IMG/VR virus record: IMGVR_UViG_3300034161_000008
Coordinates: 32,001 to 96,000 of that record
Strand: one strand, 5' to 3'
Length of the DNA stretch: 64,000 bases
From: a virus
Lineage: Duplodnaviria; Caudoviricetes
The translations under genes were made by a program, and so were the position numbers. Shown here one piece after another: positions 5,976-54,698 of the stretch. A model generated the notes under the pieces. That model had not been told where the DNA came from. It ran no database searches and saw only the letters and a list, made by a program, of their open reading frames with translations. How positions within the stretch are numbered: position 1 is the stretch's first letter; every line of letters starts with the position of its first letter.

Positions 5976-6017
5976 CGGCATAAGGAGAGCAGCCTTTCGG
6001 GGCTGCTCTCTATGCTG
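5976..6017. terminator. CATA-hairpin-TATG element between convergent genes
   Basis: CGGCATA-AG-GAGAGCAGCC-TTTCGG-GGCTGCTCTC-TATGCTG; no U-tract on either strand. Confidence 0.7.
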
Positions 6018-6021
6018 TAAA

Positions 6022-6432
6022 TTAACGAATGTCGGGGTTGTTGGCACGATCCAGATCAACCATGCGTTGGGTGCGCGCTTGCAGTGCAGCCATCGAATGT
6101 TGTAGATGGTACAGAGCTTCTGCGTTCTCGGCCGAAGCGAACGGACCGGCTTGGAAGTCAGTCAGGCGATCTATACAGACAGCCATCAGAGATTCCATGG
6201 TAATGCCGACCAGATCTTTATCTGGCATTGGGCGTTCATTCTGGAAGATCAACGACAGCTTGGAGAACGACGCACGATAGCCGTCGTCGTCAGCGTTGGC
6301 GGTGTTGAGAGCAGTGTCAAAGCCAGTGATCTGGTAGTGAGTGTGACCACCACCTGCACCTACGACACCCACAGCTTTCACAACAACGTTGGTTTCAGCG
6401 CCTTCAACGTGGTGTACGGTAACTTCTTTCAT
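6022..6432 (-). CDS. tad1: Tad1-like (Thoeris anti-defence 1) nucleotide-signal sponge, 136 aa
   Basis: GAGGGHTHYQI...IFQN...GITMESLMAVCIDRLTDFQAGPFASAENAEAL matches the recalled Tad1 pattern (GxGG..H.Y, FQ, DRL..FQAGPF...EN..AL). AAGGA SD precedes ATG at 6432. Confidence 0.75.
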   Translation of the reverse strand: MKEVTVHHVEGAETNVVVKAVGVVGAGGGHTHYQITGFDTALNTANADDDGYRASFSKLSLIFQNERPMPDKDLVGITMESLMAVCIDRLTDFQAGPFASAENAEALYHLQHSMAALQARTQRMVDLDRANNPDIR

Positions 6433-6477
6433 GAGACTTCCTTTCGTGATTAATCGGAGTACACAAAATCCACCAAA

Positions 6478-6557
6478 CAAATAAAAAAAAAAGAGTGTCG
6501 GGTAGTCCCGGCTTTTATGCCGTCATAGACGGAAGACCGAAGTCTCCCGCCTACTCA
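6478..6557 (-). terminator. Tandem double hairpin ending in a long U-tract
   Basis: Minus strand: GCGGGAGAC-TTCG-GTCTTCCGTC-TATG-ACGG-CATA-AAAGCCGGGA-CTA-CCCGACAC-TC-T10. Confidence 0.7.
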
Positions 6558-6560
6558 GGT

Positions 6561-7289
6561 TTAGCTTTCGTGCGGTGACAGACCGTTAGGACTGTTGTAG
6601 AAGCTGGCGCGACTGGGCAAGAACCGGTAGAACATGTTCTTCTTCTCAACTTGAACCAAACGATTCATGATTGAGGAGTGTATCGGCATCAAGCTTTCGG
6701 CAGCCTGCTGCGAACTGGAGTACAGAAACAATGCCCAGTGGAAAGCATCAACAACGGCTGTGGTCAAACACATCCGAGGCGAACTACCCAAGCCATCTTC
6801 GTAGTCGGTAATTGCCGAAGACATATCGCCAACAGCCGAGATGAAGTGAATCAAGCCATCGAACTGGCTAGGCATCTTTCCAACAGCCATATTGCACTTG
6901 TGGCGGTACATGTACGAAGCCATGTTGCCAACGTTGACATTGTCGGAATGTTCTTTCAGTGTCTCAGCTACGTAACCACCCAGGTTGATTTGCAGGGTGT
7001 TGGCCATTGACATCGCAATGATTACAGCATCAACAACCTTGCGACGAAACTCACGCAGGTTGTCAGCCTGATGCAGCTCCATCAGATTACCGCCGTACTT
7101 GCCCATGTGCAACACGAAGTGCGTCAGCTTCTGAGCCAGTGGCAAGGTGTGGATCTCGTGGTGGAAGTAACGGTCGTGTTGTTCTTGCAACCACTGGACT
7201 TCAAGAACTTTATCAGCGAAGAACTGATTCATTCGTGGAGCCGGAGGAGCAACTTGAATACCACAACCATCAGATGAATCGAGGATCAT
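6561..7289 (-). CDS. All-alpha hypothetical protein, possibly a divergent tandem MazG/NTP-pyrophosphatase fold
   Basis: 242 aa, ATGA-coupled to the upstream HTH gene; helical motif QxxHDxxFHxEIxxLP...HFVLHMGKY...VVDAVIIAMSMANTL. Fold call is recalled resemblance only. Confidence 0.4.
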   Translation of the reverse strand: MILDSSDGCGIQVAPPAPRMNQFFADKVLEVQWLQEQHDRYFHHEIHTLPLAQKLTHFVLHMGKYGGNLMELHQADNLREFRRKVVDAVIIAMSMANTLQINLGGYVAETLKEHSDNVNVGNMASYMYRHKCNMAVGKMPSQFDGLIHFISAVGDMSSAITDYEDGLGSSPRMCLTTAVVDAFHWALFLYSSSQQAAESLMPIHSSIMNRLVQVEKKNMFYRFLPSRASFYNSPNGLSPHES

Positions 7290-7555
7290 TCTTCTAACTC
7301 CATCTTTACTTTCTTAACGATTTGGGATACCCGGCCAGGAGACAGCTTAAAGACACTAGCGACGTCTTTAGCTTTAGATCCACCCAGTACGGCGAAGTAG
7401 ATAAACTTGTCGCGAAGTTTTACAACCTCCTCCTGCAATTCTTTAAGCTGCCCAACTTCCGTGTCGGTAAACAATCGTCCTTCATCAAGGCTAGCTTTAG
7501 CTTTATCCAAAGCTCTGCTTGCGTGTTCCAGATGACTCAATGCCAATCTTCCCAT
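7286..7555 (-). CDS. Small helix-turn-helix protein (sigma region 4-like C-terminus)
   Basis: 89 aa; SKAKDVASVFKLSPGRVSQIVKK is an HTH pattern; GGAG SD present. Confidence 0.65.
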   Translation of the reverse strand: MGRLALSHLEHASRALDKAKASLDEGRLFTDTEVGQLKELQEEVVKLRDKFIYFAVLGGSKAKDVASVFKLSPGRVSQIVKKVKMELEE

Positions 7556-7572
7556 ACGAAGTCTCCAGAGAT

Positions 7573-7614
7573 AAAAAAAATAGTAACCTAAGATGGGGAG
7601 TTCTTAGGTTACTA
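7573..7614 (-). terminator. Intrinsic terminator: perfect 12-bp inverted repeat plus U-tract
   Basis: TAGTAACCTAAG-N10-CTTAGGTTACTA with a plus-strand A8 run (U-tract on minus). Confidence 0.7.
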
Positions 7615-8423: not shown

Positions 8424-8582
8424 GCGATGTACTCCTTGCAGCATAAAACGCTGCCAAGCCCCTTGCAGGACCCGGCAGCGTACACAGTGCTCACAACAGC
8501 TCCGTTGAATGTCAATGTTTTCGGCGTACCGAAGTACCCGATGGGCTGACCAGCTCCTGCTCTGTTGCTCGCGAGTGTTTAG

Positions 8583-9305: not shown

Positions 9306-9629
9306 TTAGATTTTTGCTTTCTTCAAAGCGAAGGGCGAGATGAATCGCCCAGGTACTTCGGTACGTTCCAGCGTGTGTGCCTGATGGATCTTGTGGTTGC
9401 CCAAAAGGACGATCAGCGCACCACCGCGTTTGGTGTAAACGACTTCTTCCACAGTCGGATTAGGATGCGGAGGAGAGAGTTCACCAGCCAGATCACCGAT
9501 GGTAAGTTCTGCGACTTTTACCTTTTCGATGCGGGCTTGTTTTGCGAGTGCGACAACGGCTTCGAGATCGTAAAGGGCATCGTTCCAACGAAGCACTTGG
9601 CGACCCTGAGAGTTAATCCGCATGAGCAT
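9306..9629 (-). CDS. Hypothetical protein
   Basis: About 107-aa ORF from ATG at 9629 after AAGGA (alternative start 9623). Confidence 0.6.
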   Translation of the reverse strand: MLMRINSQGRQVLRWNDALYDLEAVVALAKQARIEKVKVAELTIGDLAGELSPPHPNPTVEEVVYTKRGGALIVLLGNHKIHQAHTLERTEVPGRFISPFALKKAKI

Positions 9630-9686
9630 TGTTTCCTTGTCGTTTTCTATACCAAGACGTAACACCGTTATTTTCTACTCGTGTTA

Positions 9687-9692
9687 GTAATA
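9687..9692 (-). promoter_or_regulatory. Candidate early promoter core TATTAC
   Basis: TATTAC in AT-rich context upstream of the 9.6-6.0 kb accessory cluster; matches the phiKZ early consensus; single short hit. Confidence 0.35.
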
Positions 9693-9716
9693 AGTGGCTG
9701 AGATTTATTTGATTGC

Positions 9717-9750
9717 GGCATAAGGGCAGCCCTAAGGCCGCCCCTATGTT
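9717..9750. terminator. CATA-hairpin-TATG element after the protease gene
   Basis: GGCATA-A-GGGCAGCC-CTAA-GGCCGCCC-C-TATGTT, abutting the protease stop codon. Confidence 0.6.
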
Positions 9751-10504
9751 ACCAGCGCAGGAACGCTGGACGTTCAACAGGCTTGTTGGACCAGCCCATC
9801 GAAGCGAACAACTCAGCACCACTGAGGATAACGGACTCTTGAGCGATGCCCGCAACCACACTTTGGCTCTGAGCGCGTTCGATATCGCCGCGAGTAAAGG
9901 TCTGATCGAACTGACCCTCCAGTGCAGGAGACATCCACTTCTCAGCCACCGACAACCCAGGCTCGTTCACGTAGTCCCACGTGACGACAGTCTTGAGGTG
10001 ACGATGTACAATCCCGCCCAGCCGGTGATCGTCTGTGAAGGCCCGGATAGAGAAACAGACGTTCTCGTTAGGGTTCTTCAACGAACGCTCCAGAGCAGCA
10101 CCGTGAGGGCCCGCAGGGAGGATATCGCCGATGATGGCGATGATCGGATTCCCTTTGGCGTCCTTGATGCTGTTGAAGTCCAGCTCCAGGTTCATGATGT
10201 GGTGGGAGACTTTGTCTTCCCAGATCGACATCACGCGGTTAGCGAACTCGTTGCTGGATTGACCCGGCAGCGGTTTCGGGTGGCCGTATTCCCCACGCAG
10301 TGCGCCCTTTGCACAACGACGCATCAGCTGGCTCGAATTCTCGAACAAAGCTTTTGCAGGCTCGTAAGCATAGAACTCACCAGCAGAGTTGAACATGTTC
10401 AGGGCACCGAGCACGACACGGTAGTAGCCTTGCTCGTTTTGCTTGAGGTTACCGACTTTGTTTATACCGGCCAAAGCCGTACAAACGAACTTAATGGAAT
10501 TCAT
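9749..10504 (-). CDS. Prohead maturation serine protease (phiKZ gp175 / T4 gp21-like)
   Basis: LRGEYGHP (His), VCFSIRA (Ser) and TWDYVNEPG motifs; ALE site near the C-terminus. Confidence 0.88.
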   Translation of the reverse strand: MNSIKFVCTALAGINKVGNLKQNEQGYYRVVLGALNMFNSAGEFYAYEPAKALFENSSQLMRRCAKGALRGEYGHPKPLPGQSSNEFANRVMSIWEDKVSHHIMNLELDFNSIKDAKGNPIIAIIGDILPAGPHGAALERSLKNPNENVCFSIRAFTDDHRLGGIVHRHLKTVVTWDYVNEPGLSVAEKWMSPALEGQFDQTFTRGDIERAQSQSVVAGIAQESVILSGAELFASMGWSNKPVERPAFLRW

Positions 10505-25761: not shown

Positions 25762-25828
25762 ACGGTCATCGATCCCACAAGGACGTGGGATTGTATGATT
25801 ATCTTTAACTCTTGTTAGGAGTAGGAAA

Positions 25829-27787: not shown

Positions 27788-27832
27788 CGTCATAGGCCCC
27801 AGCCCCGAAAAGGGCTGGGGCTGTATGCTGTC
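27788..27832. terminator. CATA-hairpin-TATG element between convergent genes
   Basis: CGTCATA-G-GCCCCCAGCCC-CGAAAA-GGGCTGGGGGC-TG-TATGCTG. Confidence 0.7.
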
Positions 27833-32439: not shown

Positions 32440-32441
32440 GC

Positions 32442-33119: not shown

Positions 33120-33140
33120 GGTCAGCTCGCTGTGAGGTGG

Positions 33141-33704: not shown

Positions 33705-34003
33705 GGTGCGACCCCTGTGCGGAACAAACGCAACCAGTCTTCGAGACTACCCTGCTCAACCAGGCAGTAGCGAATGTCCATGGTTTCTTGAGCCAGAGCC
33801 CCGATCGTTTCACGCCAGTAGCGATTGATCAGGAAACGCTGGATCTTTTCGTCATGGACGTGGAGGGCGTCAGGATGGACGCGGGACTCCCAGTCAGCCG
33901 GACGCTTGTGGCCGCTCTCGCTCAGGATCGCAGTGATCTTGGAAACGAGGTTTGGGTTTTCAACTGGCAACAGGCTGCCAATGTCTTCGTACTGTTCAGT
34001 CAT
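33665..34003 (-). CDS. Hypothetical protein
   Basis: 112 aa; ATGA-coupled to the upstream gene. Confidence 0.65.
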   Translation of the reverse strand: MTEQYEDIGSLLPVENPNLVSKITAILSESGHKRPADWESRVHPDALHVHDEKIQRFLINRYWRETIGALAQETMDIRYCLVEQGSLEDWLRLFRTGVAPCIVENHLPEAIH

Positions 34004-36068: not shown

Positions 36069-36117
36069 TAATAAATTCTCACGGGGGGTTGTTGCTTTCA
36101 AATGATTGCGGGGATGA

Positions 36118-36126
36118 GTATTTTTA
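36118..36126 (-). promoter_or_regulatory. Candidate middle-promoter motif TAAAAATAC upstream of the RecA-like gene
   Basis: Identical 9-mer lies upstream of sbcC; resembles the phiKZ middle consensus AAanntTAC. Confidence 0.45.
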
Positions 36127-36167
36127 TGACGTTTGCATTCACTAGCCATTCTACCGGACCGCCCACC

Positions 36168-36986: not shown

Positions 36987-37047
36987 CATAACGCCCCTTT
37001 CCCCATTAGGCCTCGTGAGCTTGACTGGGGAAAGGGGCTTATGGCAC
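36983..37047. terminator. Long CATA-hairpin-TATG element between convergent genes
   Basis: GTGACATA-AC-GCCCCTTTCCCCA-N20-TGGGGAAAGGGGC-T-TATGGCAC. Confidence 0.7.
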
Positions 37048-37467
37048 TCAGGTTTCGAGGACTTTCATCCTCGCACCGAACAGCTTCACCAGATCCTCGC
37101 GTATAGCAGGTTCTGGTGCGTAACGCAACCAGCCGGGCATTGCCTTAATCACGTCGGTACAGATGTGCCGAAGGGTCATTGGGGTCAGCTCGCGCTGGTG
37201 TAGTTCGTCCAAGCAAAGCTCTTTCGAACTCTTACCATTCCAGATCGCGCGGTTGAGCTGGATGCCGATGTTCAGAGAGTCTTCACGCTTGACCAATGAC
37301 ATCGCTTTGTTAAGCTTTGCCAAAGTCTCAGCATCAACACCTTCCGAACCTTCTTTGATCTGAGCGAAGAAGCTCGTCAGAAACAGCATCCGCTTCGTGC
37401 GATTCGGTAGAAGTAAGGAAAGTAGTGCAGTGCCGAAACCACCGGCCCACTTCCGAATTGCGTTCAT
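37048..37467 (-). CDS. Hypothetical protein with an N-terminal hydrophobic segment
   Basis: MNAIRKWAGGFGTALLSLLLP...; AGGTG SD 6 nt upstream of the ATG. Confidence 0.6.
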   Translation of the reverse strand: MNAIRKWAGGFGTALLSLLLPNRTKRMLFLTSFFAQIKEGSEGVDAETLAKLNKAMSLVKREDSLNIGIQLNRAIWNGKSSKELCLDELHQRELTPMTLRHICTDVIKAMPGWLRYAPEPAIREDLVKLFGARMKVLET

Positions 37468-37501
37468 GTGCATCACCTGGTTGTTTGTGGAAAATGGAAC
37501 T

Positions 37502-39097
37502 CTACGAAACGATTCGCAAGTTAGAGTAAACCCCTGCCCAAATCCCTTTGTCCTCTCCAGCCTCCACCACAGTTGCGTAGCGGAAAGATGTAGGCGACTC
37601 AAGCCAAGAAACAATCTTGACCTGTGGCTTCAAGCCTTCCAAACGTTTCAAAGCATTCCTGTCGAGTAAGTCGATCCCCAACGTTAGAGTCACTTTAGCG
37701 GACTTCGTGTCCTGGCCAACACCGTAAAGCGCCTCTGTTGGCAGAGACGCAAAGCCAACGTTGTACTCAGACTTCAGGGTTTGGATTGCTTCTATTTCCT
37801 CTCCCCCGCCTTTGATCTTCTTCGTTTTAAGGGTCGTCTCATAGAGAATAGACGTCAAATCTGTCGAAACGATCGACGGGTCACCCGCCAGATACAAATC
37901 GAGGATATCGGCCAGTTGAGACAACGACTCGACAGCACGCACAGCCAGGCGAGGTGGGTTCAGTTCCCGTGCCAGTGGTTCCAGCGGGTCCATGCCAAAC
38001 AGATCCAAACGGAACAGCTTCGGATAGTTCAGAACGTTCTCGCCCCACTCAGTCAGCTCTTTGTGAGTCTGAGCTTTGAACACCTGATCCAGACGCAACA
38101 TTACAATCGTGTCACGCTCGTTGGCATTCTTGATCTGGAAGTTGCGCACCAGCTCAATTGCAGGATCTGGAGTAGCCAGCTTGACCACCGAGAACGCACC
38201 GTCGGACATGCGCTTGCCCAACAGGTCGTCTTCCTTACCATGGTCGCCCATGTAATAGAAGCCAGGCTCGTTGTACGCGGCAAGCGTATTGAAGTAGCAA
38301 CGACGATTCGCCAACATGGCGTTCTTTTCGGTGTCGTACTTCCAGTAGCCGTCAGCAGTGGTGACTTTGATCTGCTGTTCCTGAATGCCTTTCTTGGACA
38401 GGATCACGCCGTAAGAAGCGTAGTTGTCCGCGATGGTGTTGCCCAGGTTGTCGTTATGCCCACGCACCCAATCGAAACGAATCTTGATGCCACGACCATT
38501 AAGAGTATCGCGAGCAGCCAGAAGTTCCTTCCAGTATTCCACGTTGGCCACTGGTTGTTGGTCAGCCTTGATCCAGCCTGCCTTTTCCCAACGATCAACT
38601 TGACCGGTAGTAAGGTTCTTCTGAACGTACTCGGAGTCCGTCAGAATCTGGACGCTAGTAACGTCATATTCCAGTGCGTGCAACAGAGCCCGCGTCGTCG
38701 ACGTGAGTTCTGCGATGTTGTTCGTGACTTCCCCTGGAAAGCTACCCCAGCCATCGATGTAATGGATTGGAGTAATTTGCAACAGAGGCTCGCCATTCGA
38801 AACGAAGGTGTTCGCAACCACTTTGGTTACGTAACCTTCCGCCGTCAGGATATGGTCTTGGTTACCAGTGCCTTTCTTTGGAGCTGCCGAGGAGAACATG
38901 TAACCATGCAGACCCCACCCACCGCTACCGCGAGATGGTTTACAACCACCGTCGGTGTACAGCACCAGACCCTGAACGATCGGCGGACCTTTAAGGATCT
39001 CATCAATCTCCTTGGTACTGAACTGCGGCAGAAGAGGAATATGTGGATGTCGGGGTTGTACAACAATCTCACTCCCCGGTACGATAAGCTTTGCCAT
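37502..39097 (-). CDS. rnhA: Ribonuclease HI with C-terminal extension (phiKZ gp155-like)
   Basis: LYTDGGC, TNNIAEL, LTDSEYV and WVRGH...GN.IAD catalytic motifs. Confidence 0.92.
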   Translation of the reverse strand: MAKLIVPGSEIVVQPRHPHIPLLPQFSTKEIDEILKGPPIVQGLVLYTDGGCKPSRGSGGWGLHGYMFSSAAPKKGTGNQDHILTAEGYVTKVVANTFVSNGEPLLQITPIHYIDGWGSFPGEVTNNIAELTSTTRALLHALEYDVTSVQILTDSEYVQKNLTTGQVDRWEKAGWIKADQQPVANVEYWKELLAARDTLNGRGIKIRFDWVRGHNDNLGNTIADNYASYGVILSKKGIQEQQIKVTTADGYWKYDTEKNAMLANRRCYFNTLAAYNEPGFYYMGDHGKEDDLLGKRMSDGAFSVVKLATPDPAIELVRNFQIKNANERDTIVMLRLDQVFKAQTHKELTEWGENVLNYPKLFRLDLFGMDPLEPLARELNPPRLAVRAVESLSQLADILDLYLAGDPSIVSTDLTSILYETTLKTKKIKGGGEEIEAIQTLKSEYNVGFASLPTEALYGVGQDTKSAKVTLTLGIDLLDRNALKRLEGLKPQVKIVSWLESPTSFRYATVVEAGEDKGIWAGVYSNLRIVS

Positions 39098-39149
39098 TTT
39101 AAGACCCTTTGGATCGCGTATTCAAAAGATCTGTCGGTCCAATAAAGAC

Positions 39150-39620
39150 TTACTTTTCTTTCTCAGCGTTGCAGTTTTTGATGTAGTCGTCGTAGCTCTG
39201 ACGCATCTGACGACGGATGCTGATCGTGTACTGTCGCACTTCACCGAGGTGCTTCATCACAATCATGTCGATCTTGCGATCTTCTTCATCACTCACACCG
39301 CGCGGGGGTAGTGTGGGTAATTCAGGCATCGGTTGGAATATGGGCATGTTGTAAATCGGACAGCCCTTCTTACTTGTCGCTGGTGTCGGGCTTGGAATCG
39401 GGGGCGTGGGTAGCACCGATTGGGCAGGCGACATAAATGGTACGGCGGAGGCCTCGGATTGTTTCCAACCGTTGGGACCCCGCTCGTACACGACAACGAT
39501 GCGAGAAGCACCGGATTGATCATTGACTGAAGGGATGTCGAGACGCAAACCCCCGGAATCATTAGTAGCGCAGGCGGGCAGCAAAAGCAGCACCGCCATG
39601 CTCAAGTGTCTCAACTTCAT
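39150..39620 (-). CDS. Lipoprotein, o-spanin-like
   Basis: Signal peptide with lipobox (LLLLPA-C), Pro-rich middle; ATGA-coupled to the upstream membrane protein. Confidence 0.5.
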   Translation of the reverse strand: MKLRHLSMAVLLLLPACATNDSGGLRLDIPSVNDQSGASRIVVVYERGPNGWKQSEASAVPFMSPAQSVLPTPPIPSPTPATSKKGCPIYNMPIFQPMPELPTLPPRGVSDEEDRKIDMIVMKHLGEVRQYTISIRRQMRQSYDDYIKNCNAEKEK

Positions 39621-40135
39621 TGGTTCTCATCCTTACGCATTTTCTCAAGCAGGTCGCGTACGGAGTCGTAACGAGTACCTTTAGGGCCTGATGGGTTAGA
39701 GACAGCACCGCTAGCAGAACCTGGAGTACACCGAGCCAGCGCTACCGCCAGTTCGTTGTTGGTTTCCAGCAGCAGTTTGTTACGCCCGATCAAATCCGTA
39801 AGCCGGGACTCCTTCGATGTAATCGTTGCTTGCTGCTCGTCAATGGTTTTGTCATCGTCGAGAGCATTTTGCTTGAGCTGATCGTTCAAGGCTTTAAGCC
39901 CCAAGAACTCTTTGGAATCGTCTTCCAATTTCTTGTGATCAACTTTAAGCTGGATGAACTGGGTGGAGATGTCGAACAGGCGTGGAGTCAGCCAAATGTT
40001 CATGCCGATCGATCCGATGATCGCAAACAACAGAAACAGTCTTAACTTGTTTGTTCTCAGCGCCTGTGTCAGCGTTTTGTCACCTAGGAACATTTCCTTA
40101 AGGAAAGGCCATAGGAACCTTAGGATCGCAGACAT
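39617..40135 (-). CDS. Single-pass membrane coiled-coil protein, i-spanin-like
   Basis: One TM segment (LFLLFAIIGSIGMNIWL) followed by a long coiled coil and one Cys. Confidence 0.5.
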   Translation of the reverse strand: MSAILRFLWPFLKEMFLGDKTLTQALRTNKLRLFLLFAIIGSIGMNIWLTPRLFDISTQFIQLKVDHKKLEDDSKEFLGLKALNDQLKQNALDDDKTIDEQQATITSKESRLTDLIGRNKLLLETNNELAVALARCTPGSASGAVSNPSGPKGTRYDSVRDLLEKMRKDENQ

Positions 40136-40198
40136 GATTTTATACCGCCTTCATTGTATGGGCTGATTCATAAACATAACTTTGCTGAGAGTTCAGGC

Positions 40199-41503
40199 AT
40201 GTATACCCTCAATGGCTTTGTCAACGTCACGCCGCTTGCAATCAACGTGAAAGGCGTTGTTTCGCCAATCGGTGAAATCTCTACACGCTCCCTGACCTAC
40301 TCTCGCGAAGTTGGCCAGTATGCGTTGCCAGCGTACAAAGATGTCACACTGGTAACATTCCTCAGCAGTGAAGGCGACGACTTGGTCGTAGTGCCAGACG
40401 CTGTGCGGGATCAAGTTCTGAAAATCTCACAATGGTTGTGGGATCGCGCAGTTGCTGGGGCAAGTTCTAACGATCGTGATGAGATCCTATCAGATCTTTT
40501 GACTAAGTTCCAGACTGAAGCCAACACTTTTGATTGCGGTGAAGTAATCAAATCTGCTGACGCACGTTACGCTCTGCCGGAGTGGCTGAACTGGAAGAAC
40601 GTTGCCCAAGATGCTGGCGACAACTTCATCAAGGTTTACTTCGCAGACCAGTCGTTCCAGAACCAGTACGACAAGACGTTCGTTAAACCGGTGTTCACGT
40701 TCCTGCCGGTCGACAACTTCTTCCTGGCTCCTGCTGTTGTTATTGCCGCTATTAAAGCGCGTACTAACGCCATGCGTGCGGACATGCTGGAAACGGCAAA
40801 AGAAGGCTTCCCGGAAACCATCCAGTGGGGTGACTCGTTTGACTACGTGTCTCCTCTGGACAACAGCAAAACTCCGGCTGACTTCGAGGCGCTGATCTAC
40901 GGTGCTGCCGGTAACAACATCGACACGATCAAAGACGCCATCACGACTGAGATTCTCAAAGAGTCTACGCACACTCGTGACGAATGGGTCAAGATCCTGC
41001 CCGATCTGTTCAAGCGCACCGAAGTGATCCTGACGCCGATCTGGGACAAACTGGCCATCCCTGACAGCAACCAAGTCTCGGGTATCTACTCCCCAGTAAC
41101 GCTGCTGTCTCGGGCGATGTCTGTGGTCAAGCAAACCGCTATCGGCTACGCAGCCTATCACGTTGAGCAATATGCTGAACTGACTGGCCACCCGTACAAG
41201 TCGCTGGCAATGACCGCCATCGGTGGTCCTGAGAACCGTGACGACAAGTTCCGTCTGTCCCAGTTCTTCCCCGACTACATCAACGTTGGTGCAACTACCA
41301 ACGACTTCTCGCGCATGGGCAAATATACGACCGACTGGTTGTATATGCTGGCCGAGATGATGCTGATCGCTGAAAGCATGACTGCTTATAGCGACATTCC
41401 TCGGGGCATGACGCGCCTGACTCGTGAAGGGATCATGTACGTAGTCAAAAGCTACGACAAGACTCAGTACCTGGTTGCGGCTAAGAACAACTTCGTTAGC
41501 TGA
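40199..41503 (+). CDS. Probable virion structural protein
   Basis: MYTLNGFVNV..., 434 aa; synteny within the phiKZ-like virion block. Confidence 0.65.
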   Translation: MYTLNGFVNVTPLAINVKGVVSPIGEISTRSLTYSREVGQYALPAYKDVTLVTFLSSEGDDLVVVPDAVRDQVLKISQWLWDRAVAGASSNDRDEILSDLLTKFQTEANTFDCGEVIKSADARYALPEWLNWKNVAQDAGDNFIKVYFADQSFQNQYDKTFVKPVFTFLPVDNFFLAPAVVIAAIKARTNAMRADMLETAKEGFPETIQWGDSFDYVSPLDNSKTPADFEALIYGAAGNNIDTIKDAITTEILKESTHTRDEWVKILPDLFKRTEVILTPIWDKLAIPDSNQVSGIYSPVTLLSRAMSVVKQTAIGYAAYHVEQYAELTGHPYKSLAMTAIGGPENRDDKFRLSQFFPDYINVGATTNDFSRMGKYTTDWLYMLAEMMLIAESMTAYSDIPRGMTRLTREGIMYVVKSYDKTQYLVAAKNNFVS

Positions 41504-41511
41504 GGCACAAG

Positions 41512-42126
41512 ATGGCGAACAATATTCCACCACCGGGACTCCGAGGGATTTACACGCTCCTGGAACCCTTCAAGGCAAAGCTGCTGGATAAGGTGGCCTA
41601 CACCTGCGTATCGACTCGGGGCATCAACGAGCTGATCAATAGCGGCATCGACGTGTTCTCGGTGTACTACCAGCCGAACAACATCCCTCAGGAGAAGTAC
41701 AACGAAGACATCGTCAATGGAATGATGATCGTTACGTTCCAAGCGGGTGCTGGTGTTTGGTTGGATGTTCCTTCTACCTACATCGACGGCCTGCCTGATC
41801 TGAACGGGATTCCGTACAGCCCTCTGGTTGTGGCATTGCGCTTAGGCGCAGTCGCCGACAGCTCTGACCTTTCTTACTTGCAGTCGCGTTTGGAAGGGGT
41901 GGTTAAAGAGGAGCTCGGAATCGTCGTGACTTCTGAGCTGGTGTTGGTCGGTCAGCAGACTTTGGTGTCTGATGCGGATCACAAGCTGGTTGAGGCGTCT
42001 CGCGATGTCAACAAGGCAGCAGCTGATACCGACTACTCCAAGTACCTGGCCGAGAAAACTCGAGCAGATGCACTGGCGTTGAAGGTTACTCAGCTGGAAG
42101 ACTACATCAAGTCTAAAGGCCTGTAA
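41512..42126 (+). CDS. Probable virion structural protein
   Basis: 204 aa with a C-terminal coiled coil; co-oriented with the previous gene. Confidence 0.6.
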   Translation: MANNIPPPGLRGIYTLLEPFKAKLLDKVAYTCVSTRGINELINSGIDVFSVYYQPNNIPQEKYNEDIVNGMMIVTFQAGAGVWLDVPSTYIDGLPDLNGIPYSPLVVALRLGAVADSSDLSYLQSRLEGVVKEELGIVVTSELVLVGQQTLVSDADHKLVEASRDVNKAAADTDYSKYLAEKTRADALALKVTQLEDYIKSKGL

Positions 42127-42163
42127 GGGCATAGAGCCGGGGCTGGTCCCCGGCCTTATGCTG
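42127..42163. terminator. CATA-hairpin-TATG element between convergent genes
   Basis: GGGCATA-GA-GCCGGGG-CTGGT-CCCCGGC-CT-TATGCTG. Confidence 0.7.
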
Positions 42164-42165
42164 TC

Positions 42166-43023
42166 TCACACGTTCGGAGCAGAAATCGGCGCAACCGAAG
42201 TCACTTTGCCTGCTGTGAAATTACCAGTCACTTCGCCATTACCGTTCACCAAGAAGTCACCAGTCACAGCCATGTTACCGGTCTGTGTGTAGTTACCCTT
42301 CAAGGTGAAGTTGCCGTCGAGGTTGAAGTCGCCTTTCCAGTTCGTGGTTGGGCAAGTCCAAGTCGTCGTACCGCCAGCAATGCCCGTGACGTCCTGACCT
42401 TCCATCCGAATGGTCGTGCCCTTGTAGTTCTTGGACTCGATCAACCCAGTGGCAGATTCAATGGTGACGTAGTTGCCCAGAGAGTCAGTCACGAGGAACT
42501 TGGACTCTTTGGTGTTCAGCTGCATGTCCCACTCGTTGGGCTCGTTGTTCGCCGCCGAGGTGTGCAGAGCAACCAAACCATCGTGAGTCGAGATCTCCAG
42601 ATAGTACGTGTTGGTAGCATCGGGATTGGCGGCTTCGTCACTGCTACCGGAGAATGCGTAGATCACAGTCTCCAGTTTCATCAGGTGGTCATCCAGTCCC
42701 AGCTCGGACCAGTAGTATTGCGGGTCGTTAGCGAACTGCAAGATTCGCACTTTCGTACCACGACGAACATCTGGTGGCATGACTCGGTTAGAGCCCTGTG
42801 GGAGCCATGTAGCTGGAACCGTACCGGTACTGGTCAGAGTTGCATCAAACGCCCTACCGTCGACGCCAAGGCCTGCAACGGCCTGTGTATCTGCGTTGTC
42901 GGTCAACTCACCGTCCAAGAACGGAGAAATCTCGCTGAGCACCACTTCCACGACTTTACTGGAGCGGGCTTTGTTGACAGCCACCACACCGATCGATACA
43001 TCTTCCAATGCACTGACTTTCAT
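42166..43023 (-). CDS. Baseplate central spike / needle (phiKZ gp164-like)
   Basis: OB-like N-terminus (PPDVRRGTKV.I.QFA...YYW); C-terminal beta-helix hexapeptide repeats GNFTLK/GNYTQT/GNMAVT/GDFLVN/GNGEVT. Confidence 0.8.
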   Translation of the reverse strand: MKVSALEDVSIGVVAVNKARSSKVVEVVLSEISPFLDGELTDNADTQAVAGLGVDGRAFDATLTSTGTVPATWLPQGSNRVMPPDVRRGTKVRILQFANDPQYYWSELGLDDHLMKLETVIYAFSGSSDEAANPDATNTYYLEISTHDGLVALHTSAANNEPNEWDMQLNTKESKFLVTDSLGNYVTIESATGLIESKNYKGTTIRMEGQDVTGIAGGTTTWTCPTTNWKGDFNLDGNFTLKGNYTQTGNMAVTGDFLVNGNGEVTGNFTAGKVTSVAPISAPNV

Positions 43024-43040
43024 TATAAACCCCACAAAGT

Positions 43041-43049
43041 TAAAAATAC
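43041..43049 (+). promoter_or_regulatory. Candidate middle-promoter motif TAAAAATAC upstream of sbcC
   Basis: Identical to the 9-mer upstream of the RecA-like gene; 42 nt before the ATG. Confidence 0.45.
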
Positions 43050-43091
43050 CTGACCTAGCTATCTTTTGCAGACTGGCTAAGGGCTAATCAA

Positions 43092-45578
43092 ATGCGTATC
43101 ACTCTTTTAGAGCTGGTAGACTTTAAATGTTTGTTCAAAAGTAACATCCAACATTTCAAGTTCAAACCTTCAGAGGTCTATCAACTTATTCTCGGTACAA
43201 ACGGTAGTGGTAAGTCCTCAGTAATGAGTGAACTCACCCCATGGCCATCTGATCCAAATGACTTCACCAAAGAAGGCTACAAGGCTATAGAACTAGTCGC
43301 ACGAGGGTCTAAATACAGACTCACGTCAGAATTCAGAAAGAAGGTTACTCACACGTTCGAGAAGGATGGTGAGGAGCTGAATCCAGGAGGTACAACCTCC
43401 GTCCAGAAACAACTCTGTACACAACATTTCGCAGTTACTCAGGAAACACAGGACCTGTTGATGGACCGTGAGCGGTTCACCAAGATGAAGCCTGCTGAGA
43501 AACGCCAGTGGTTCACTCGACTGTCGGACACCAACTACGATTTCGCTATCGATGTCTACAACAAACTCTCCAAAGAGGGTCGAGACGTAGAAGGGGATCT
43601 GCGTCGTACCAAGTCCCGGCTGGTGACAGAGATTGAAAAGGTCATCACCAAGGAAGAGGAAGAGCGTCTAGAGATCGAAGTCAATGCACTGGACGACGAA
43701 ATCAAACGCCTGCTGAGCGAACACAATCCTCGCTTCGACAAACCCCACACCTTCGCTGAGAAACGTGCCAAGCACTTGGAGAAGATCGCTCAGTTCGCAC
43801 TGAAGATCCTCAAGACTCAGATCGTGGCTCCAGAAGGCTCCACAGCCAACTGCATCCAAGACATTGACGATATTGTCTACGACCTGAACACCAAGCTTTC
43901 AATGCATGAAGGCGAGCTCAACATCCACGTCAAAACTCACGACAAGCTTGAGAAAGCTGTCAGTGCTTTGCGTCAGGCTGGTGCTGAGGGCATTACCGCT
44001 CTACGCAACAAACTCGAACCTTTGCGGGTAGAGCGTGACAGCTGGTATAAGAAACAACGCCTGCAACTGGTGATACCCAACCCGGAAGAAGCTCAACGCG
44101 CTCTGGAGACGGTATGGGACTCTCTGGAGGCATGCTTCGATGCACTGCCACCGAATGAGGATCGTCGCTACTCTCAGGGTCGTTTGGTGCAGCTTCGGGA
44201 AAGTCGTGAAGCACGAACCAAGGACATTGATCAGGGTCGCCTGAACATTGCCAAACTGGTTGCCCGTCGCGAACACATGGAGGCTCACAAAGCTCAAGCT
44301 GGTTTGACGTGCCCTAAGTGTCACCACAGTTGGGTGTCTGGTTTCAGTGACGAGCATTACGCCAAGTGTATCGCTAACATCGAGACGCTGAGCGAAGCCA
44401 ACAAGTTACTGGAACAAGAAGTCAGCGAGATCGACGAACAGATCGATGGTGTCGTTAACTACGCCAACACCTACCGTGAGTTCACTCGCATCTCCCAGAA
44501 CTGGCCTGCACTGATGCCACTGTGGGATTACTTGGCGGAAGAGAAGCTGGTTATCAACTTCCCATCCAAAGCCAAGGGCGTGTTGTCGATCTTCCAAGCT
44601 GATCTGGTCCATGCACAAAGCGCAGTGCGTTGTGAGCGTGAACTTGAAGAGATCCAGCGAATCATCTCCGCAGCTTCTGAGTCTGAAGATGAGAACTTAG
44701 AAGACGCGCTAGATGAACTGGCAACGGTTGAAGCATTGGTCCACGAGATCACTGACCGTATCCAGACCATTCGCAAACAGATCTCTCTGTACGCTGGCTA
44801 CAAATACCAACTGGCAGAAGTGGGCGAAGCGAACGTTACGATCATTCGCATGATGGAAGAGTCTCAGACCCACACTGAGCAAGAGATAGAAGCGAGCTAC
44901 CACCAACTGCTGAGTTCGATGATTTCGAACGCCACGCACACGATGGTGAAGAAGCGCGACAGTCTGCAAAACGTTCGTCAGCAACGGGCAGTCGTCCGTG
45001 CTTTGGAACAACAGATTGAAGACGCTACCGCTGACGATCAAGCGTACAAAGCGCTGATCAAAGAACTCTCGCCAAAGGAAGGTCTGATCGCAGAAGGCTT
45101 GCTCGGATTCATTCGCAATTTTACTGGACAGATGAATCATCTGATTCACAAAATCTGGACGTACCCTTTGCAAGTTCGTCCGTGCGGTGGTGAAGTCGAA
45201 GGCAGTGCTGACCTCGATTACAAGTTCCCAATGATGGTGTCCTCTAAAACGAATATCGTCCCTGACGTTAATCGTGGTTCCAGTGGGCAGCAAGAGATTG
45301 TGAACTTGGCGTTCAAGGTTGTGTCCATGCGCTATATGGGCATGGCTGACTTCCCTCTGTTCCTCGATGAGTTTGGGGCTTCGTTTGACGAGGCTCACCG
45401 TAACAGCGCAATGGCTGTGGTCAAGACGCTGATGGAGCAGCAAAGCTTCTCTCAACTGTTTATGGTTTCTCACTACGAGGGCAACCACGGCGCACTCACT
45501 AATGCCGAAGTCATGGTGCTCTGCCCACAGAACATCACCGTACCCGCCAAATACAACCAACATGTTGAATTGAACTAG
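43092..45578 (+). CDS. sbcC: SbcC/Rad50-like SMC ATPase (phiKZ gp165-like)
   Basis: Walker A GTNGSGKSS, coiled coils, CPKC zinc hook, signature SSGQ, Walker B FLDE, VSH. Confidence 0.93.
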   Translation: MRITLLELVDFKCLFKSNIQHFKFKPSEVYQLILGTNGSGKSSVMSELTPWPSDPNDFTKEGYKAIELVARGSKYRLTSEFRKKVTHTFEKDGEELNPGGTTSVQKQLCTQHFAVTQETQDLLMDRERFTKMKPAEKRQWFTRLSDTNYDFAIDVYNKLSKEGRDVEGDLRRTKSRLVTEIEKVITKEEEERLEIEVNALDDEIKRLLSEHNPRFDKPHTFAEKRAKHLEKIAQFALKILKTQIVAPEGSTANCIQDIDDIVYDLNTKLSMHEGELNIHVKTHDKLEKAVSALRQAGAEGITALRNKLEPLRVERDSWYKKQRLQLVIPNPEEAQRALETVWDSLEACFDALPPNEDRRYSQGRLVQLRESREARTKDIDQGRLNIAKLVARREHMEAHKAQAGLTCPKCHHSWVSGFSDEHYAKCIANIETLSEANKLLEQEVSEIDEQIDGVVNYANTYREFTRISQNWPALMPLWDYLAEEKLVINFPSKAKGVLSIFQADLVHAQSAVRCERELEEIQRIISAASESEDENLEDALDELATVEALVHEITDRIQTIRKQISLYAGYKYQLAEVGEANVTIIRMMEESQTHTEQEIEASYHQLLSSMISNATHTMVKKRDSLQNVRQQRAVVRALEQQIEDATADDQAYKALIKELSPKEGLIAEGLLGFIRNFTGQMNHLIHKIWTYPLQVRPCGGEVEGSADLDYKFPMMVSSKTNIVPDVNRGSSGQQEIVNLAFKVVSMRYMGMADFPLFLDEFGASFDEAHRNSAMAVVKTLMEQQSFSQLFMVSHYEGNHGALTNAEVMVLCPQNITVPAKYNQHVELN

Positions 45579-45586
45579 GAGTTGAC

Positions 45587-46339
45587 ATGAGTCACGTTGA
45601 AGACACTATCACTAAGCTGGAATCGCTGCGCCGCATCGCCGGTGCTTTGCATAACGACATCGAAGGCCTGCTGGAAGACCTGAAAGTCTCCTCGGCACCT
45701 GCGCTGATCGACACGCCGCTGGTACACACCCACGCCCCTGCTGTAGATCTTCCGTACGTTCAAGACCCGGTCAACCCAACTGGCCAAGTCCGCGATGCTT
45801 TCCATTCGGCGAAACCACCAGTCGACGATCCGAAACGCACCCTGCAACCAGTTCGCCGCGAAGCCGTCATCCATCAAGCCGGTCGTCAACCACAACCGCT
45901 GGGCGATGCAGTTGAAGAACTGCTCAGCGCCGTTGAAGCCAATGCTGCCAGCCAGCGCGGTCCAAAGTCTCCGGGTGAAGTGCTAACTCAGTACATGTCG
46001 CCTGCAATCCTGACCGGCGGCCGTGGTTTCGTACAGCCCGGTGCCAGTGGTCTGAAACGTTATCGCGAAACGCTGCTGAACAACGATGACCTCAAACCCG
46101 ACGAACTGGTAACCTACCCTGACGGTTTCTACTCCGCCGACCCACAAGGTCAAGACGAGTTCTTCATCAAGACCCCGAACTTCATGGTTCTGGTCCACGG
46201 CCTGCGTAGCACTCCTGGTCTGCTAGTGTTCCTGCGCAGCAGCATGGGTGAAGCGGTTGATCAGGGTTCTCTGTCCCTGGGCGAGCGTCTGCAACTGTCG
46301 CAAGAGCTGGACGTCGTTCTGTCATCCCTGCCGGAATAA
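45587..46339 (+). CDS. Hypothetical protein with a Pro-rich linker
   Basis: 250 aa; AGGAG SD; co-oriented with sbcC. Confidence 0.7.
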   Translation: MSHVEDTITKLESLRRIAGALHNDIEGLLEDLKVSSAPALIDTPLVHTHAPAVDLPYVQDPVNPTGQVRDAFHSAKPPVDDPKRTLQPVRREAVIHQAGRQPQPLGDAVEELLSAVEANAASQRGPKSPGEVLTQYMSPAILTGGRGFVQPGASGLKRYRETLLNNDDLKPDELVTYPDGFYSADPQGQDEFFIKTPNFMVLVHGLRSTPGLLVFLRSSMGEAVDQGSLSLGERLQLSQELDVVLSSLPE

Positions 46340-46380
46340 GGCATAGAGCCCCAGCCCTAAAAAGGCTGGGGCTTATGACG
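46340..46380. terminator. CATA-hairpin-TATG element between convergent genes
   Basis: GGCATA-GA-GCCCCAGCC-CTAAAAA-GGCTGGGGC-T-TATGAC. Confidence 0.7.
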
Positions 46381-47613
46381 TCAAACGTCTTTGCAGATCT
46401 TCATGAAGAAGGCTGGCGAGATTTCGTCTGGCCGGTACGGGTAGCGGCTGTTGTCGATGTTGCGCTGAGCCATTGCGTCTACAGTTTGGAAGTTGTAGTT
46501 CGGGATCAGCGATTCCTGAATGTGAACAGACCACTGGGTGTCTTCGTAGACGTACCAGTATTCAGAGATCTTACCGAAGCCCACCCGCAACGGCCAAATA
46601 GGAGGCACGTGTGAAACGTACATCCCCGGCAACTGAGCGTTCTCAAGCTTGGACAGCTCAACGTACAGATCGTTGGTATCCACCACCACAAAGAAGCTCT
46701 GTGGTAGGGTGGCGTATGCCTCGATGAAAGCATCGGACTTCAGATCAGCAACCGAGAGTTCAAACTTGTTGCGCTCATTCTTCTCGTATGGCAGCGAGGA
46801 GAAGTCCAGAAACGGTTCCGACTCGTAGAAGCGCTTAGCCATCGGATAGTTCTGGAAGTCGATGCAATACTGGTGATCGCCCACTCGGTAGTAGGTGTTG
46901 TCCAGTACGTGCAGATAACCACCCAACACCAACAGCATCGTGCGATCACCAATGTCTTTGCCGATGTCGATGTACGTCTGTTGCGAGTACAGTCCGTCCG
47001 GCGACTGTTTATAGAGCATTTCCTTGGTGATAGGAATCAGCTCCAGTTCACCGACTTCACGGAAACTGTGGACGCCCACTTGAGCTTCCAAAGACTTCTG
47101 GCGAGAGACATCACCTTTCATTACACGAATGCCTTTGTAAGCTTTGTCCGTGACGTGAAAGAAGCCGTTGACCGAAACCAGACAGTTCTTAACGAACAGA
47201 TCAACATCCAGTCCGGACTTGGTCAGATACAACGAAGTCTTGGCACCCGGTGGCAGTTCCGTGTCCGGCGCGAACAGGTCGTGGATCGGCGCTACGGTGT
47301 AACCTGCGTGGAATGCATCGGCGTAACGAACGAACGTCGTGTCGATCTTTGGGATCGTGTCAGACGTCGGTAAAGTGAGGTTGCCGTTGGTGACCAGCCA
47401 GTCGGAAAACGTTACATCCAGAGTGCCCACTTTATCCCGAATGTCGGCAAAATCCAAAGACACTGGAGCGTCCAGAAAACTGTTGGTTAGAACAGCGAAG
47501 ACTTTGGAATAAAGAGAGTAAATTTGGATGAAGGTAAGTGCCGAAAGATCAAGGTCTTGCCACCGGGTCTCCCCGTCGATTGGTTTGGCGATTGCGGAGA
47601 CAAGCTGGTACAT
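46381..47613 (-). CDS. Probable virion (baseplate-associated) structural protein
   Basis: 410 aa; divergent from the tail-fibre genes; LVSVNGFFH motif recalled from phiKZ-like virion proteins. Confidence 0.65.
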   Translation of the reverse strand: MYQLVSAIAKPIDGETRWQDLDLSALTFIQIYSLYSKVFAVLTNSFLDAPVSLDFADIRDKVGTLDVTFSDWLVTNGNLTLPTSDTIPKIDTTFVRYADAFHAGYTVAPIHDLFAPDTELPPGAKTSLYLTKSGLDVDLFVKNCLVSVNGFFHVTDKAYKGIRVMKGDVSRQKSLEAQVGVHSFREVGELELIPITKEMLYKQSPDGLYSQQTYIDIGKDIGDRTMLLVLGGYLHVLDNTYYRVGDHQYCIDFQNYPMAKRFYESEPFLDFSSLPYEKNERNKFELSVADLKSDAFIEAYATLPQSFFVVVDTNDLYVELSKLENAQLPGMYVSHVPPIWPLRVGFGKISEYWYVYEDTQWSVHIQESLIPNYNFQTVDAMAQRNIDNSRYPYRPDEISPAFFMKICKDV

Positions 47614-52853: not shown

Positions 52854-52856
52854 CAA

Positions 52857-53399
52857 ATGGATTTCACTCCTTCGCTCCTTCGTAAGCAAGACATCCCCGA
52901 GGCAGGTTATTCTCTCTATGCGTGGCCTTGTGTGCGCGCTTCTGAGTACCTTGGGGAAGATTGCTGGCAAACCATCAAGGCTTTGAAGTTCGGCGTCCCT
53001 GAGGGCGTTGGCAACGAAGACTATAAAGACGTTACCATCACGGTTCCAGCTGGGTACATTGTGCTGCGTCAAAAGCTGCCATGGACTCTGCGATGGCTGG
53101 CTCCGATTTGGGGGCGGCATCAAACTGCCTCGATTCTCTATCAGTTCATGAGTGAGCAGTCGACGGCAATGGTTGGTGGCAAGCTGCATCGTTGGACTCG
53201 GCGTGAAGTCCATTACTCTGTACTGGGTACGATCGGCAACGACATTCGTATCCCGGTTTGGAAACGACTGGTAATGACTGCGCACTTTGCGTGGTTGGCA
53301 CGCAAGCGTTACTACGACGCTGCGCCCACGGAAACCCGTCTGTTCTTTGAAATCGAAATGGAACAGAACCGAGCCCAAAAAAAGGCGGTGAGTAAATGA
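52857..53399 (+). CDS. DUF1353-like protein with degenerate motifs
   Basis: ITVPAGY...P..LRWL.P.WGRH..ASIL resembles DUF1353 but lacks the usual HD. Confidence 0.5.
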   Translation: MDFTPSLLRKQDIPEAGYSLYAWPCVRASEYLGEDCWQTIKALKFGVPEGVGNEDYKDVTITVPAGYIVLRQKLPWTLRWLAPIWGRHQTASILYQFMSEQSTAMVGGKLHRWTRREVHYSVLGTIGNDIRIPVWKRLVMTAHFAWLARKRYYDAAPTETRLFFEIEMEQNRAQKKAVSK

Positions 53400-54007
53400 T
53401 CGAGTTAACCGATACACGCGACCAGATGATCACCCGCATCGCTGGCGTGGAAGCGGGCTACGTGAACAACCCGAACGACAAAGGCGGTGAAACCAATCAC
53501 GGTATCACCAAAGCGGTCGCTCTGGAAAACTCTGCTGACTTGCAAAAGCTGTTCCAGTGGGACGGCACCATGAAGAATCTGTCCTCGGCGGCAGCTTTGT
53601 GGATCTACAAGCAGAAATACTGGGACAAGATGATGCTGGATGCGATCTATCAAATCTCGCCTTCGTGCGCAGACAAGATGCTCGACATCGGTATCAACTC
53701 CGGTACTGCTGCGTCCGTTACGATCTTGCAGAAGTTCCTTTCTGCTTTGAACGTGCAGGCGACCCTGTACCCTGATCTGGCGCTGGATGGCGGGATGGGC
53801 ACCAAGACTATTGGTGCACTGAACACGTTGATTGCCAAGCGCGGTCAGAAAGAAGTGGTTCAACGCCTGGCCATGACTTTGATGTCGTACCAAGTGGTGA
53901 ATGCGATCGAGATCTCCAACGGCCGTGCCGCAAACGAAACGTTCACCTGGGGTTGGTTGAACCGTCAGTGGGATGGTGTGATTCGTTACATCGGTCTGAC
54001 CAAGTAA
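53396..54007 (+). CDS. Glycoside hydrolase family 108 muramidase with peptidoglycan-binding domain (endolysin)
   Basis: EAGYVNNPNDKGGETNHGIT catalytic motif; LALDGGMGTKTIGAL PG-binding motif. Confidence 0.9.
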   Translation: MIELTDTRDQMITRIAGVEAGYVNNPNDKGGETNHGITKAVALENSADLQKLFQWDGTMKNLSSAAALWIYKQKYWDKMMLDAIYQISPSCADKMLDIGINSGTAASVTILQKFLSALNVQATLYPDLALDGGMGTKTIGALNTLIAKRGQKEVVQRLAMTLMSYQVVNAIEISNGRAANETFTWGWLNRQWDGVIRYIGLTK

Positions 54008-54012
54008 TCGCA

Positions 54013-54040
54013 GCCCGTCCACTTCGGTGGGCGGGTTTCA
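54013..54040 (+). terminator. Hairpin with UUCG loop after the lysin gene
   Basis: GCCCGTCCAC-TTCG-GTGGGCGGGT-TTCA; short U-tract. Confidence 0.55.
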
Positions 54041-54055
54041 CACTGGAGACTCATC

Positions 54056-54634
54056 GTGGAAAACGATTACAACAAACCCTCAGAAGTGCTGGTATACGAC
54101 CTGATCGTTTATGCCAACGGAACGGCAGTCCCACATTCGGATCTAGTGTTCGGTTTGCCAGAAGCGTTCGCTCCTTATGCCTCAGATCCACTTCGGCGAG
54201 ATACGCGCGTTACTGTTTCAGCTTTGTTGTATCCATTTGCCCGCCAAAGAGGCAAAGTGGTACTGACGTATCGCCGTTTAGCACTGGAACAATTTATACC
54301 AGAGTTTGAAGACGTACCGATTGAAGTTCTACGTCTGCCATTCACTGCGCACCAAGTCCTACCACAGATCAACGCACGCTACGGCTTGAGTCTGTCTGTG
54401 CTGGACATTGAAGACACTTTGTTTAGCGAAGCATCGACAACCTACGGCATCAAGGCTCGAGCAGAGTCGTTGGCGTGGCAAGGCGTGCTTGAGATCGAGA
54501 CGACTTACATCGAGACTCGATTGGACGAACTGATCCGCGTGACTTCCCTTGATGGTTTCCATTACGTGAACTACCAAGGCGATCTTAGCGATCTGATCGT
54601 CGAGACACAACTCAGTGGTTTTGATGCGGCATAA
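54056..54634 (+). CDS. Probable virion protein, paralogue of the 58.1-61.6 kb family
   Basis: GTG start with GGAG SD; shares the V...IN.RYGL.L...DI motif with that family. Confidence 0.6.
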   Translation: MENDYNKPSEVLVYDLIVYANGTAVPHSDLVFGLPEAFAPYASDPLRRDTRVTVSALLYPFARQRGKVVLTYRRLALEQFIPEFEDVPIEVLRLPFTAHQVLPQINARYGLSLSVLDIEDTLFSEASTTYGIKARAESLAWQGVLEIETTYIETRLDELIRVTSLDGFHYVNYQGDLSDLIVETQLSGFDAA

Positions 54635-54698
54635 GGCACCTCCCTGAAGCATCCTAGCCTTTAGAGGGCTCAGGTGCTTCAGGGAGGCTCTATGCTGC
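54626..54698. terminator. Long CATA-hairpin-TATG element between convergent genes
   Basis: GCGGCATA...CCTCCCTGAAGCA...TGCTTCAGGGAGG...TATGCTGC; the upstream TAA stop overlaps the CATA. Confidence 0.7.

Follow-up and report, generated by a model that had tools for sequence, protein, structure and literature searches.

The eight CATA-[GC hairpin]-TATG elements located between positions 5,976 and 54,698 of the 64,000-nucleotide (nt) stretch of viral DNA analysed here (hereafter 'the window', bases 32001-96000 of a 218,436-bp genome with 52.7% GC, IMG/VR record IMGVR_UViG_3300034161_000008) are probably phiKZ-type intrinsic terminators that are poor in U-tracts and act in both directions. Such elements have already been described in the phages phiKZ and 201phi2-1, and those of the window thus represent the palindromic form of a known element type in another phiKZ-like phage. 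The assignment as bidirectional terminators is well supported because position, strand logic and identity with the motif mapped in phiKZ and 201phi2-1 converge on it. Coordinates refer to the window unless the genome is specified.

All eight elements of the original prediction are present, and a scan for CATA...TATG pairs enclosing a stable fold returned exactly these eight in the window (Table 1) along with nine further ones outside of it, that is, 17 genome-wide. As had been proposed, the elements directly follow stop codons (at one flank or both, the stop is 0-8 nt away) and seven of the eight separate convergent genes, while element 9717 is placed between two minus-strand genes. Two junctions which were ambiguous could be resolved by PHROG matches of a flanking gene (36102-36986(+), phrog_4682; 46381-47613(-), phrog_3337). 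The inner stems are rich in GC (folding energies of -12 to -38 kcal/mol), with the outer CATA:TATG pair being offset from them by a mismatch or bulge of 1-3 nt. A U-tract is indeed lacking: a canonical hairpin-plus-U-tract scan of positions 27001-47000 (at least 5 T within the 8 nt past the stem) passes over all five elements located there and yet finds the ordinary terminator at 29044-29063; the U-tract terminator at 7573 is likewise real, so that ordinary terminators occur separately. Rfam yielded no match at the gathering score anywhere in the window. Two statements of the original prediction require modification. Stems and loops, thought to differ completely, are mostly unrelated but include some sub-families (e.g., GCCCGG/CCGGGC and CCCCCT(A/G)CCC) within which compensatory differences are encountered, e.g., CCCCCTACCC/GGGTAGGGGG versus CCCCCTGCCC/GGGCAGGGGG. 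Moreover, the 'at least eight' members are part of a larger family, which in the window also comprises the one-sided and hybrid members of Table 1.

Table 1. Hairpin elements and ordinary terminators in the window (CATA and TATG columns: first base of the motif).
Feature	Positions	Strand	CATA	TATG	Structure and setting
Two-sided element	5976-6018		5979	6011	between 5109-5975(+) and 6022-6480(-)
Two-sided element	9717-9751		9719	9745	between minus-strand protease gene 9749-10504 and 9306-9665
Two-sided element	27788-27830		27791	27824	convergent 25829-27787(+) / 27831-29039(-)
Two-sided element	31168-31207		31171	31201	convergent 30680-31162(+) / 31208-31963(-)
Two-sided element	36983-37046		36987	37040	49-nt inner hairpin; convergent 36102-36986(+) / 37048-37614(-)
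Two-sided element	42127-42163		42130	42157	convergent 41512-42126(+) / 42166-43035(-)
Two-sided element	46340-46380		46342	46374	convergent 45587-46339(+) / 46381-47613(-)
Two-sided element	54626-54698		54630	54691	57-nt inner hairpin; between 54056-54634(+) and 54760-55401(-)
Hybrid element	6487-6523				plus strand: A-run, hairpin 6497-6512, TTTTATGCCGT (one-sided member 6497-6519(+)); gene-sense minus strand: GGCATAAAA (CATAAAA), hairpin, U-tract
One-sided element	6524-6551	-			UUCG-loop hairpin, then TATGACGG on the gene-sense strand
One-sided element	8442-8481	-			34-nt hairpin, then TTTATGCTG
Weak one-sided member	25772-25797	+			ATCCCAC/GTGGGAT hairpin, then TGTATG; after the gene of a 2306-aa protein; gene 25829 starts 35 nt further on
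Ordinary hairpin and U-tract terminator	7573-7614	-			contrast case
Ordinary hairpin and U-tract terminator	29038-29063	-			contrast case

Genome-wide, the association of hairpin and TATG is highly non-random and not a matter of chance. Energy-dense hairpins were listed on both strands (554 after clustering) and the 4-mers located 0-3 nt past the 3' arm were scored: TATG is the most enriched one (29 seen versus 2.5 expected), with TTTT following far behind (18 versus 5.3). The converse scan, in which every TATG with a stable hairpin ending 0-4 nt upstream was collected, yields 52 sites when counted by strand, 50 of which are intergenic in a genome that is ~90% coding. At 38 of these 50 sites the stop codon of a co-directional open reading frame (ORF) of at least 80 residues is found within 40 nt upstream (median 11.5 nt), as compared with 7.6% of random positions, and the inner hairpins of all 50 range from -9 to -37 kcal/mol.

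The conserved 3' tail turned out to be longer than the TATG initially recognized. Its consensus, YTTATGCYGT (that is, Y-T-TATG-C-Y-G-T), is evident from the 50 intergenic sites, which exhibit Y at position -2, T (32/50) or C (16/50) at -1, C at +4 (38/50), C or T at +5 (50/50), G at +6 (33/50), and T or C at +7 (44/50); 16 of the 20 TATGCYGT words present in the genome are linked to a hairpin. On the 5' side, CATA mirrors the tail and has the full form CRGCATAA. The 17 two-sided palindromes are found mostly at convergent junctions, while ~19 one-sided sites carry the tail on a single strand, in gene sense between tandem genes in ~13-15 cases versus 4 antisense cases. The third class is formed by four hybrids: here the strand in gene sense has GGCATA(G/A)A-hairpin-U-tract, and the TATG tail is confined to the antisense strand. 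The exchange of the tail for a U-tract on one strand of these hybrids shows that tail and U-tract share one slot. A MAFFT alignment of 34 compact elements is anchored on the TATG tail, and the 5' arms do not come into register because the stems have neither sequence nor length in common. No covariance model was built from this alignment; a custom hairpin and motif scan, combined with 4-mer and control-genome tests, was employed in its place. A stronger fold on the TATG-bearing strand (16 of 20 one-sided elements, never weaker) was also considered as evidence, and was rejected as a selection artefact: 521 control hairpins passed through the same pipeline show an equal strand bias (mean -4.3 kcal/mol, 83% below zero).

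The source of the window, judged from its genes, is an uncultivated phiKZ-like jumbo phage of the nucleus-forming type which possesses its own RNA polymerases (RNAPs). The window encodes a 1429-aa phiKZ-type RNAP beta subunit (phrog_3148, E=0), and a homologue of GP123, a subunit of the phiKZ non-virion RNAP (nvRNAP), is encoded elsewhere in the genome (29% identity, E 4e-74). The nearest deposited phage is Burkholderia phage FLC9, with a beta subunit that is just 51% identical, and the metagenome contigs L080 and L081 are closer than FLC9 (recombinase ~65%). As an aside, relatives with ~3-4% divergence are present in public wastewater, peat and biofilm runs for positions 27500-47000 (one contig comprises 139.7 kb), with short blocks being diverged in them at 42183-42274, 44177-44541, 45774-45866 and 46183-46325; three of the runs containing near relatives are labelled RNA-Seq (X4, X5, X9) and appear to be DNA; being stored as contigs, they revealed neither transcript starts nor ends. 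In two public runs element 31168 carries a +G/-C indel pair (31181-31189) that moves the loop by one base and keeps the stem.

The guess that related elements might already be known in phiKZ-like genomes was right. In phiKZ, 133 termination regions were mapped by ONT-cappable-seq, 61 predicted intrinsic terminators share the motif 5'-BCCYCCCCHWWDGGGRRGGBYTTATKYYGT-3', that is, a hairpin followed by TTAT, and six bidirectional termination regions are located between convergent genes (Putzeys et al. 2024, PMC10914365). For 201phi2-1, a motif A (n=59) was reported that 'strongly resembles' the phiKZ motif, and eight selected strong terminators of that phage stopped transcription in uninfected P. 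chlororaphis reporter strains, i.e., with the host RNAP (PMC11512511). We find CATA-hairpin-TATG palindromes in the phiKZ sequence itself, namely after gp120, gp124, gp125, gp129 and gp116. The one following the capsid gene gp120 reads ACATAG-GCCCTCCC-TTCG-GGGAGGGC-TTTATGTTGT, the one between the convergent genes gp125 and gp126 reads GGCATAAA-CCCCTCTCC...GGAGAGGGG-CTATG, and at gp132/gp133 there is a hybrid of the form CATAAGAG-hairpin-U-tract. The features of a phiKZ-type terminator, that is, a GC stem-loop, TTAT(G/T) 3' of the stem, YYGT, an intergenic 3' position and a phiKZ-type RNAP, are all found in the present phage. Its elements share with those of phiKZ and 201phi2-1 that (i) a GC-rich hairpin is immediately followed by YTTAT(G/T)YYGT, (ii) they are intergenic and come after stop codons, and (iii) two-way copies are placed between convergent genes; phiKZ-type RNAPs are likewise encoded by both the present phage and phiKZ. 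However, the present genome has a GC content of 53% versus 37% for phiKZ, its stems are not of the CCYCCCC/GGGRRGG type, and its tail reads TATGCCGT versus TATGTTGT. Comparison with the bidirectional terminators of bacteria (A-tract, hairpin, U-tract) likewise reveals a single GC hairpin between convergent genes and complementary A/U-rich flanks, and in the hybrids of the present phage one side does have a true U-tract. In contrast to the bacterial terminators, a fixed word (CATAA/TTATG plus CYGT) forms the flank, in which there are no more than 3-4 U instead of a U-run.

These comparisons point to a mode of action in which the transcript of each strand would fold into a hairpin rich in GC immediately behind the stop codon, and a short, weakly pairing U/A-rich tail (Y-UUAUG-CYGU) would follow in place of a long U-tract. 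The RNA-DNA hybrid behind the hairpin would then be a weak UUAU, and the transcript would end within or near it. For convergent gene pairs the tail is mirrored on the 5' side as CRGCATAA, and a single hairpin could thus stop polymerases arriving from both directions; tandem genes need the tail on the sense strand only, which would account for the one-sided members. By analogy with phiKZ and 201phi2-1, transcripts of the present phage probably end at the elements, and the polymerases stopped there would be the phage's own. Of the originally proposed 'phage-RNAP-specific bidirectional terminators', the bidirectional terminator stands on account of position, strand logic and motif identity. The specificity for the phage polymerase is less secure, since the assays for 201phi2-1 employed the host RNAP, with which its terminators are active as well.

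Several considerations weigh against terminators of this kind. Termination in the present phage is deduced from anatomy and from experiments conducted with two related phages, and for phiKZ the long-read 3' ends alone cannot distinguish termination from 3' processing. A tail with just 3-4 U is weak by bacterial rules, and the conserved GCYGT, being located beyond the likely point of release, is left unexplained by a simple hairpin-plus-U model. Finally, the four hybrids carry the TATG tail in antisense orientation, where no gene requires a terminator.

The signal recurs in other phiKZ-like phages. TATG is the top 4-mer located 3' of GC hairpins in the present genome (32 seen versus 1.9 expected), phiKZ (84 versus 7.9), FLC9 (57 versus 4.7), Xoo-sp14 (64 versus 3.4), RP12 (91 versus 8.3), RSL2 (29 versus 5.1) and Eowyn (50 versus 4.4), and the enrichment over these seven phiKZ-like genomes is 5.6-19 fold. 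It is weak in EL (2.8 fold) and not seen past the hairpins of SPN3US (1.4 fold; the U-tract dominates there), AR9 (0.9 fold) and the unrelated jumbo phage RSL1, which served as a GC-matched control (1.2 fold). Two-sided CATA...TATG hairpins, counted for the subset with perfect stems, number 9 in the present genome, 24 in phiKZ, 21 in RP12, 19 in Xoo-sp14, 13 in Eowyn, 12 in FLC9 and 3 in RSL2, and zero in EL, SPN3US, AR9 and RSL1. The tail consensus tTTATGCCGtca is near-identical in the present phage, Eowyn, RP12 and FLC9, and hairpin plus TTATGCYGT is retained in phiKZ-like phages that infect Pseudomonas, Klebsiella, Ralstonia, Xanthomonas and Burkholderia as well as in the present lineage. 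Six IMG/VR relatives (L001-L006; ~40% protein identity, 37-40% GC) showed no hairpin-TATG enrichment, the ~20 kb covered in each of them being insufficient for a verdict. At the junctions of contig L080 that are orthologous to 27788 and 36983 (flanking proteins 33-47% identical), the CATA/TATG flanks are kept and the stem is wholly different. The flanks are conserved, while the stem is constrained to pairing alone.

The identity of TATG with the core of the phiKZ late promoter had been correctly stated in the original prediction: the core is 5'-TATG-3' with G as +1, and is necessary, albeit not sufficient, for late transcription by the nvRNAP (Yakunina 2015, PMC4666361). Hairpins are not mentioned in that study, and TATG is unmentioned in the searchable text of the transcriptome papers on phiKZ and 201phi2-1 (PMC10914365, PMC11512511). 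A structure reported in 2026 reveals that the beta-like subunit GP123 binds the four bases as single-stranded non-template DNA in a pocket under the beta-lobe (PMC12809450). One may thus ask if the elements are coupled terminator-promoter units, in which the hairpin stops the polymerase and the TATG behind it restarts transcription at the G, possibly alongside termination. Between tandem genes such units would drive the next gene, and at convergent junctions they would send antisense RNA into the opposing gene. The requirement of late transcription for TATG with a G start, and its binding by GP123 (PMC4666361, PMC12809450), fit with this idea, as do ~10 one-sided elements behind which the next co-directional start codon follows after 13-53 nt, with the ribosome-binding site just past the tail (e.g., TATGCCCTAAGGA), and the hairpin-free TATG that also precedes several structural genes where neighbouring genes diverge. 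Moreover, promoter-coupled terminators are reportedly widespread among bacteria (Fletcher et al. 2026 preprint, 10.64898/2026.08.19.745784); there, too, the terminating DNA also feeds an adjacent promoter, but the enzyme is the sigma-70 RNAP and the overlap is between U-tract and -10 element, and such coupling is hypothetical for phiKZ-type polymerases. With the phiKZ late promoter, the elements share the same four letters and the same polymerase family. However, most TATG copies of the present phage end a gene behind a hairpin and face an opposing gene, while the model promoter P119L contains TATG and no hairpin. Specifically, at ~60% of the sites the element points at an opposing gene's 3' end, which precludes a role as promoter of mRNA, TATG is insufficient by itself in phiKZ (PMC4666361), the extended CYGT tail is specific for hairpins, as is apparent from the TATGCYGT count given above, and at 9717 and genome position 107403 the downstream operon has a separate TATTAC-type motif ~25 nt further on. 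We thus consider restart at the elements possible, yet rather doubtful.

Elements of RNA processing or stability, in which the hairpins guard 3' ends or nucleases cut at the A/U-rich base and the polymerase is not stopped, would explain the 3'-end placement and the stability of the hairpins equally well; in addition, a UUCG tetraloop is on the gene-sense strand in 9 of the 10 one-sided or hybrid cases having such a loop. Nonetheless, this explanation is unlikely: in a terminator trap, 201phi2-1 terminators chosen so as to cover the published motifs lowered the expression of a downstream reporter (PMC11512511), and the hybrids, with their swap for a U-tract, are indicative of a termination module. 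The proposal of a recognition site for an RNase or another protein, also part of the original prediction, found no support here. Least probable by far are palindromes acting at the level of DNA, either as protein-binding sites or cruciforms, or as a mobile repeat akin to repetitive extragenic palindromes (REP) or miniature inverted-repeat transposable elements (MITE). Palindromic symmetry, and an SbcC-like protein which is encoded at 43092-45578, are compatible with such a role. However, one-sided members retain only the 3' half-site and do so in sense orientation, the unrelated sequences and lengths of the stems show that these are not copies of one repeat, and orthologous junctions keep position and flanks, but not the stem.

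Returning to the phiKZ-type terminators, it is tempting to speculate, though only tentatively, that their TATG tail is read by the phage's nvRNAP. The pocket under the beta-lobe would catch TATG in the transcription bubble and thereby pause the enzyme or allow it to restart at the G; a pause just after formation of the hairpin could let a hairpin with only 3-4 U release the polymerase. Pausing through the pocket and restart at the G are not mutually exclusive. Among the pocket residues, the GP123 homologue of the present phage retains S144, F151, H331, S334 and Q466, together with aromatic ones at positions 185 and 406. SPN3US and EL differ at several positions of the pocket, which is suggestive but no evidence, given that the alignments have just 18-30% identity and that the lineages are few and not independent.

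Elements and flanking genes are closely interlocked at some junctions. The CATAA flank may overlap with coding signals, as for the gene 54056-54634, the TAA stop codon of which is located inside CATAA (54630-54634). At element 36983, the CAT at 36987-36989 creates a spurious ATG and hence a 178-aa minus-strand ORF (36453-36989) without PHROG match, which misled a simple gene caller. At 6487-6551, two minus-strand terminator hairpins stand back to back just upstream of the gene 6022-6480. An early/late split between U-tract and TATG terminators was not seen: both are located inside one putative early operon (9692 to 6022), the only one that could be delimited.

A further recurrent intergenic motif, (T/C)AC(T/A)TATTAC(C/T), is present on the minus strand at 9687-9697 of the window and at positions 25543, 107373, 117079, 123610, 172725 and 213897 of the genome, and resembles the AT-rich early/middle promoter words of phiKZ. 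Two of its copies are found ~25 nt downstream of a hairpin-TATG element, and at 9692 it heads an island of small genes extending from 9665 to 6022. Two hairpins of near-identical sequence (AGCCAGCCCC..GGGCTGGCT; genome 146618-146650 and 147838-147870), located outside the window, are directly followed by CTTATTACGG, i.e., they are fused to the TATTAC word in place of TATG.

For the present genome, the elements provide a reliable map of the ends of transcription units and are of aid in gene calling, considering that the two ambiguous junctions were resolved in a manner consistent with them. The absence of the signal from other branches and from the unrelated jumbo phage suggests that it is tuned to the phage's own transcription machinery, and the overlap of the tail with the late-promoter core TATG offers a lead on how polymerases devoid of a sigma factor terminate. 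If the tail is indeed read by the nvRNAP, termination would depend on the promoter core, which would account both for the constancy of the tail over hosts of 37-58% GC and for its absence from branches in which the pocket or the promoter has diverged, that is, SPN3US, AR9 and, largely, EL.

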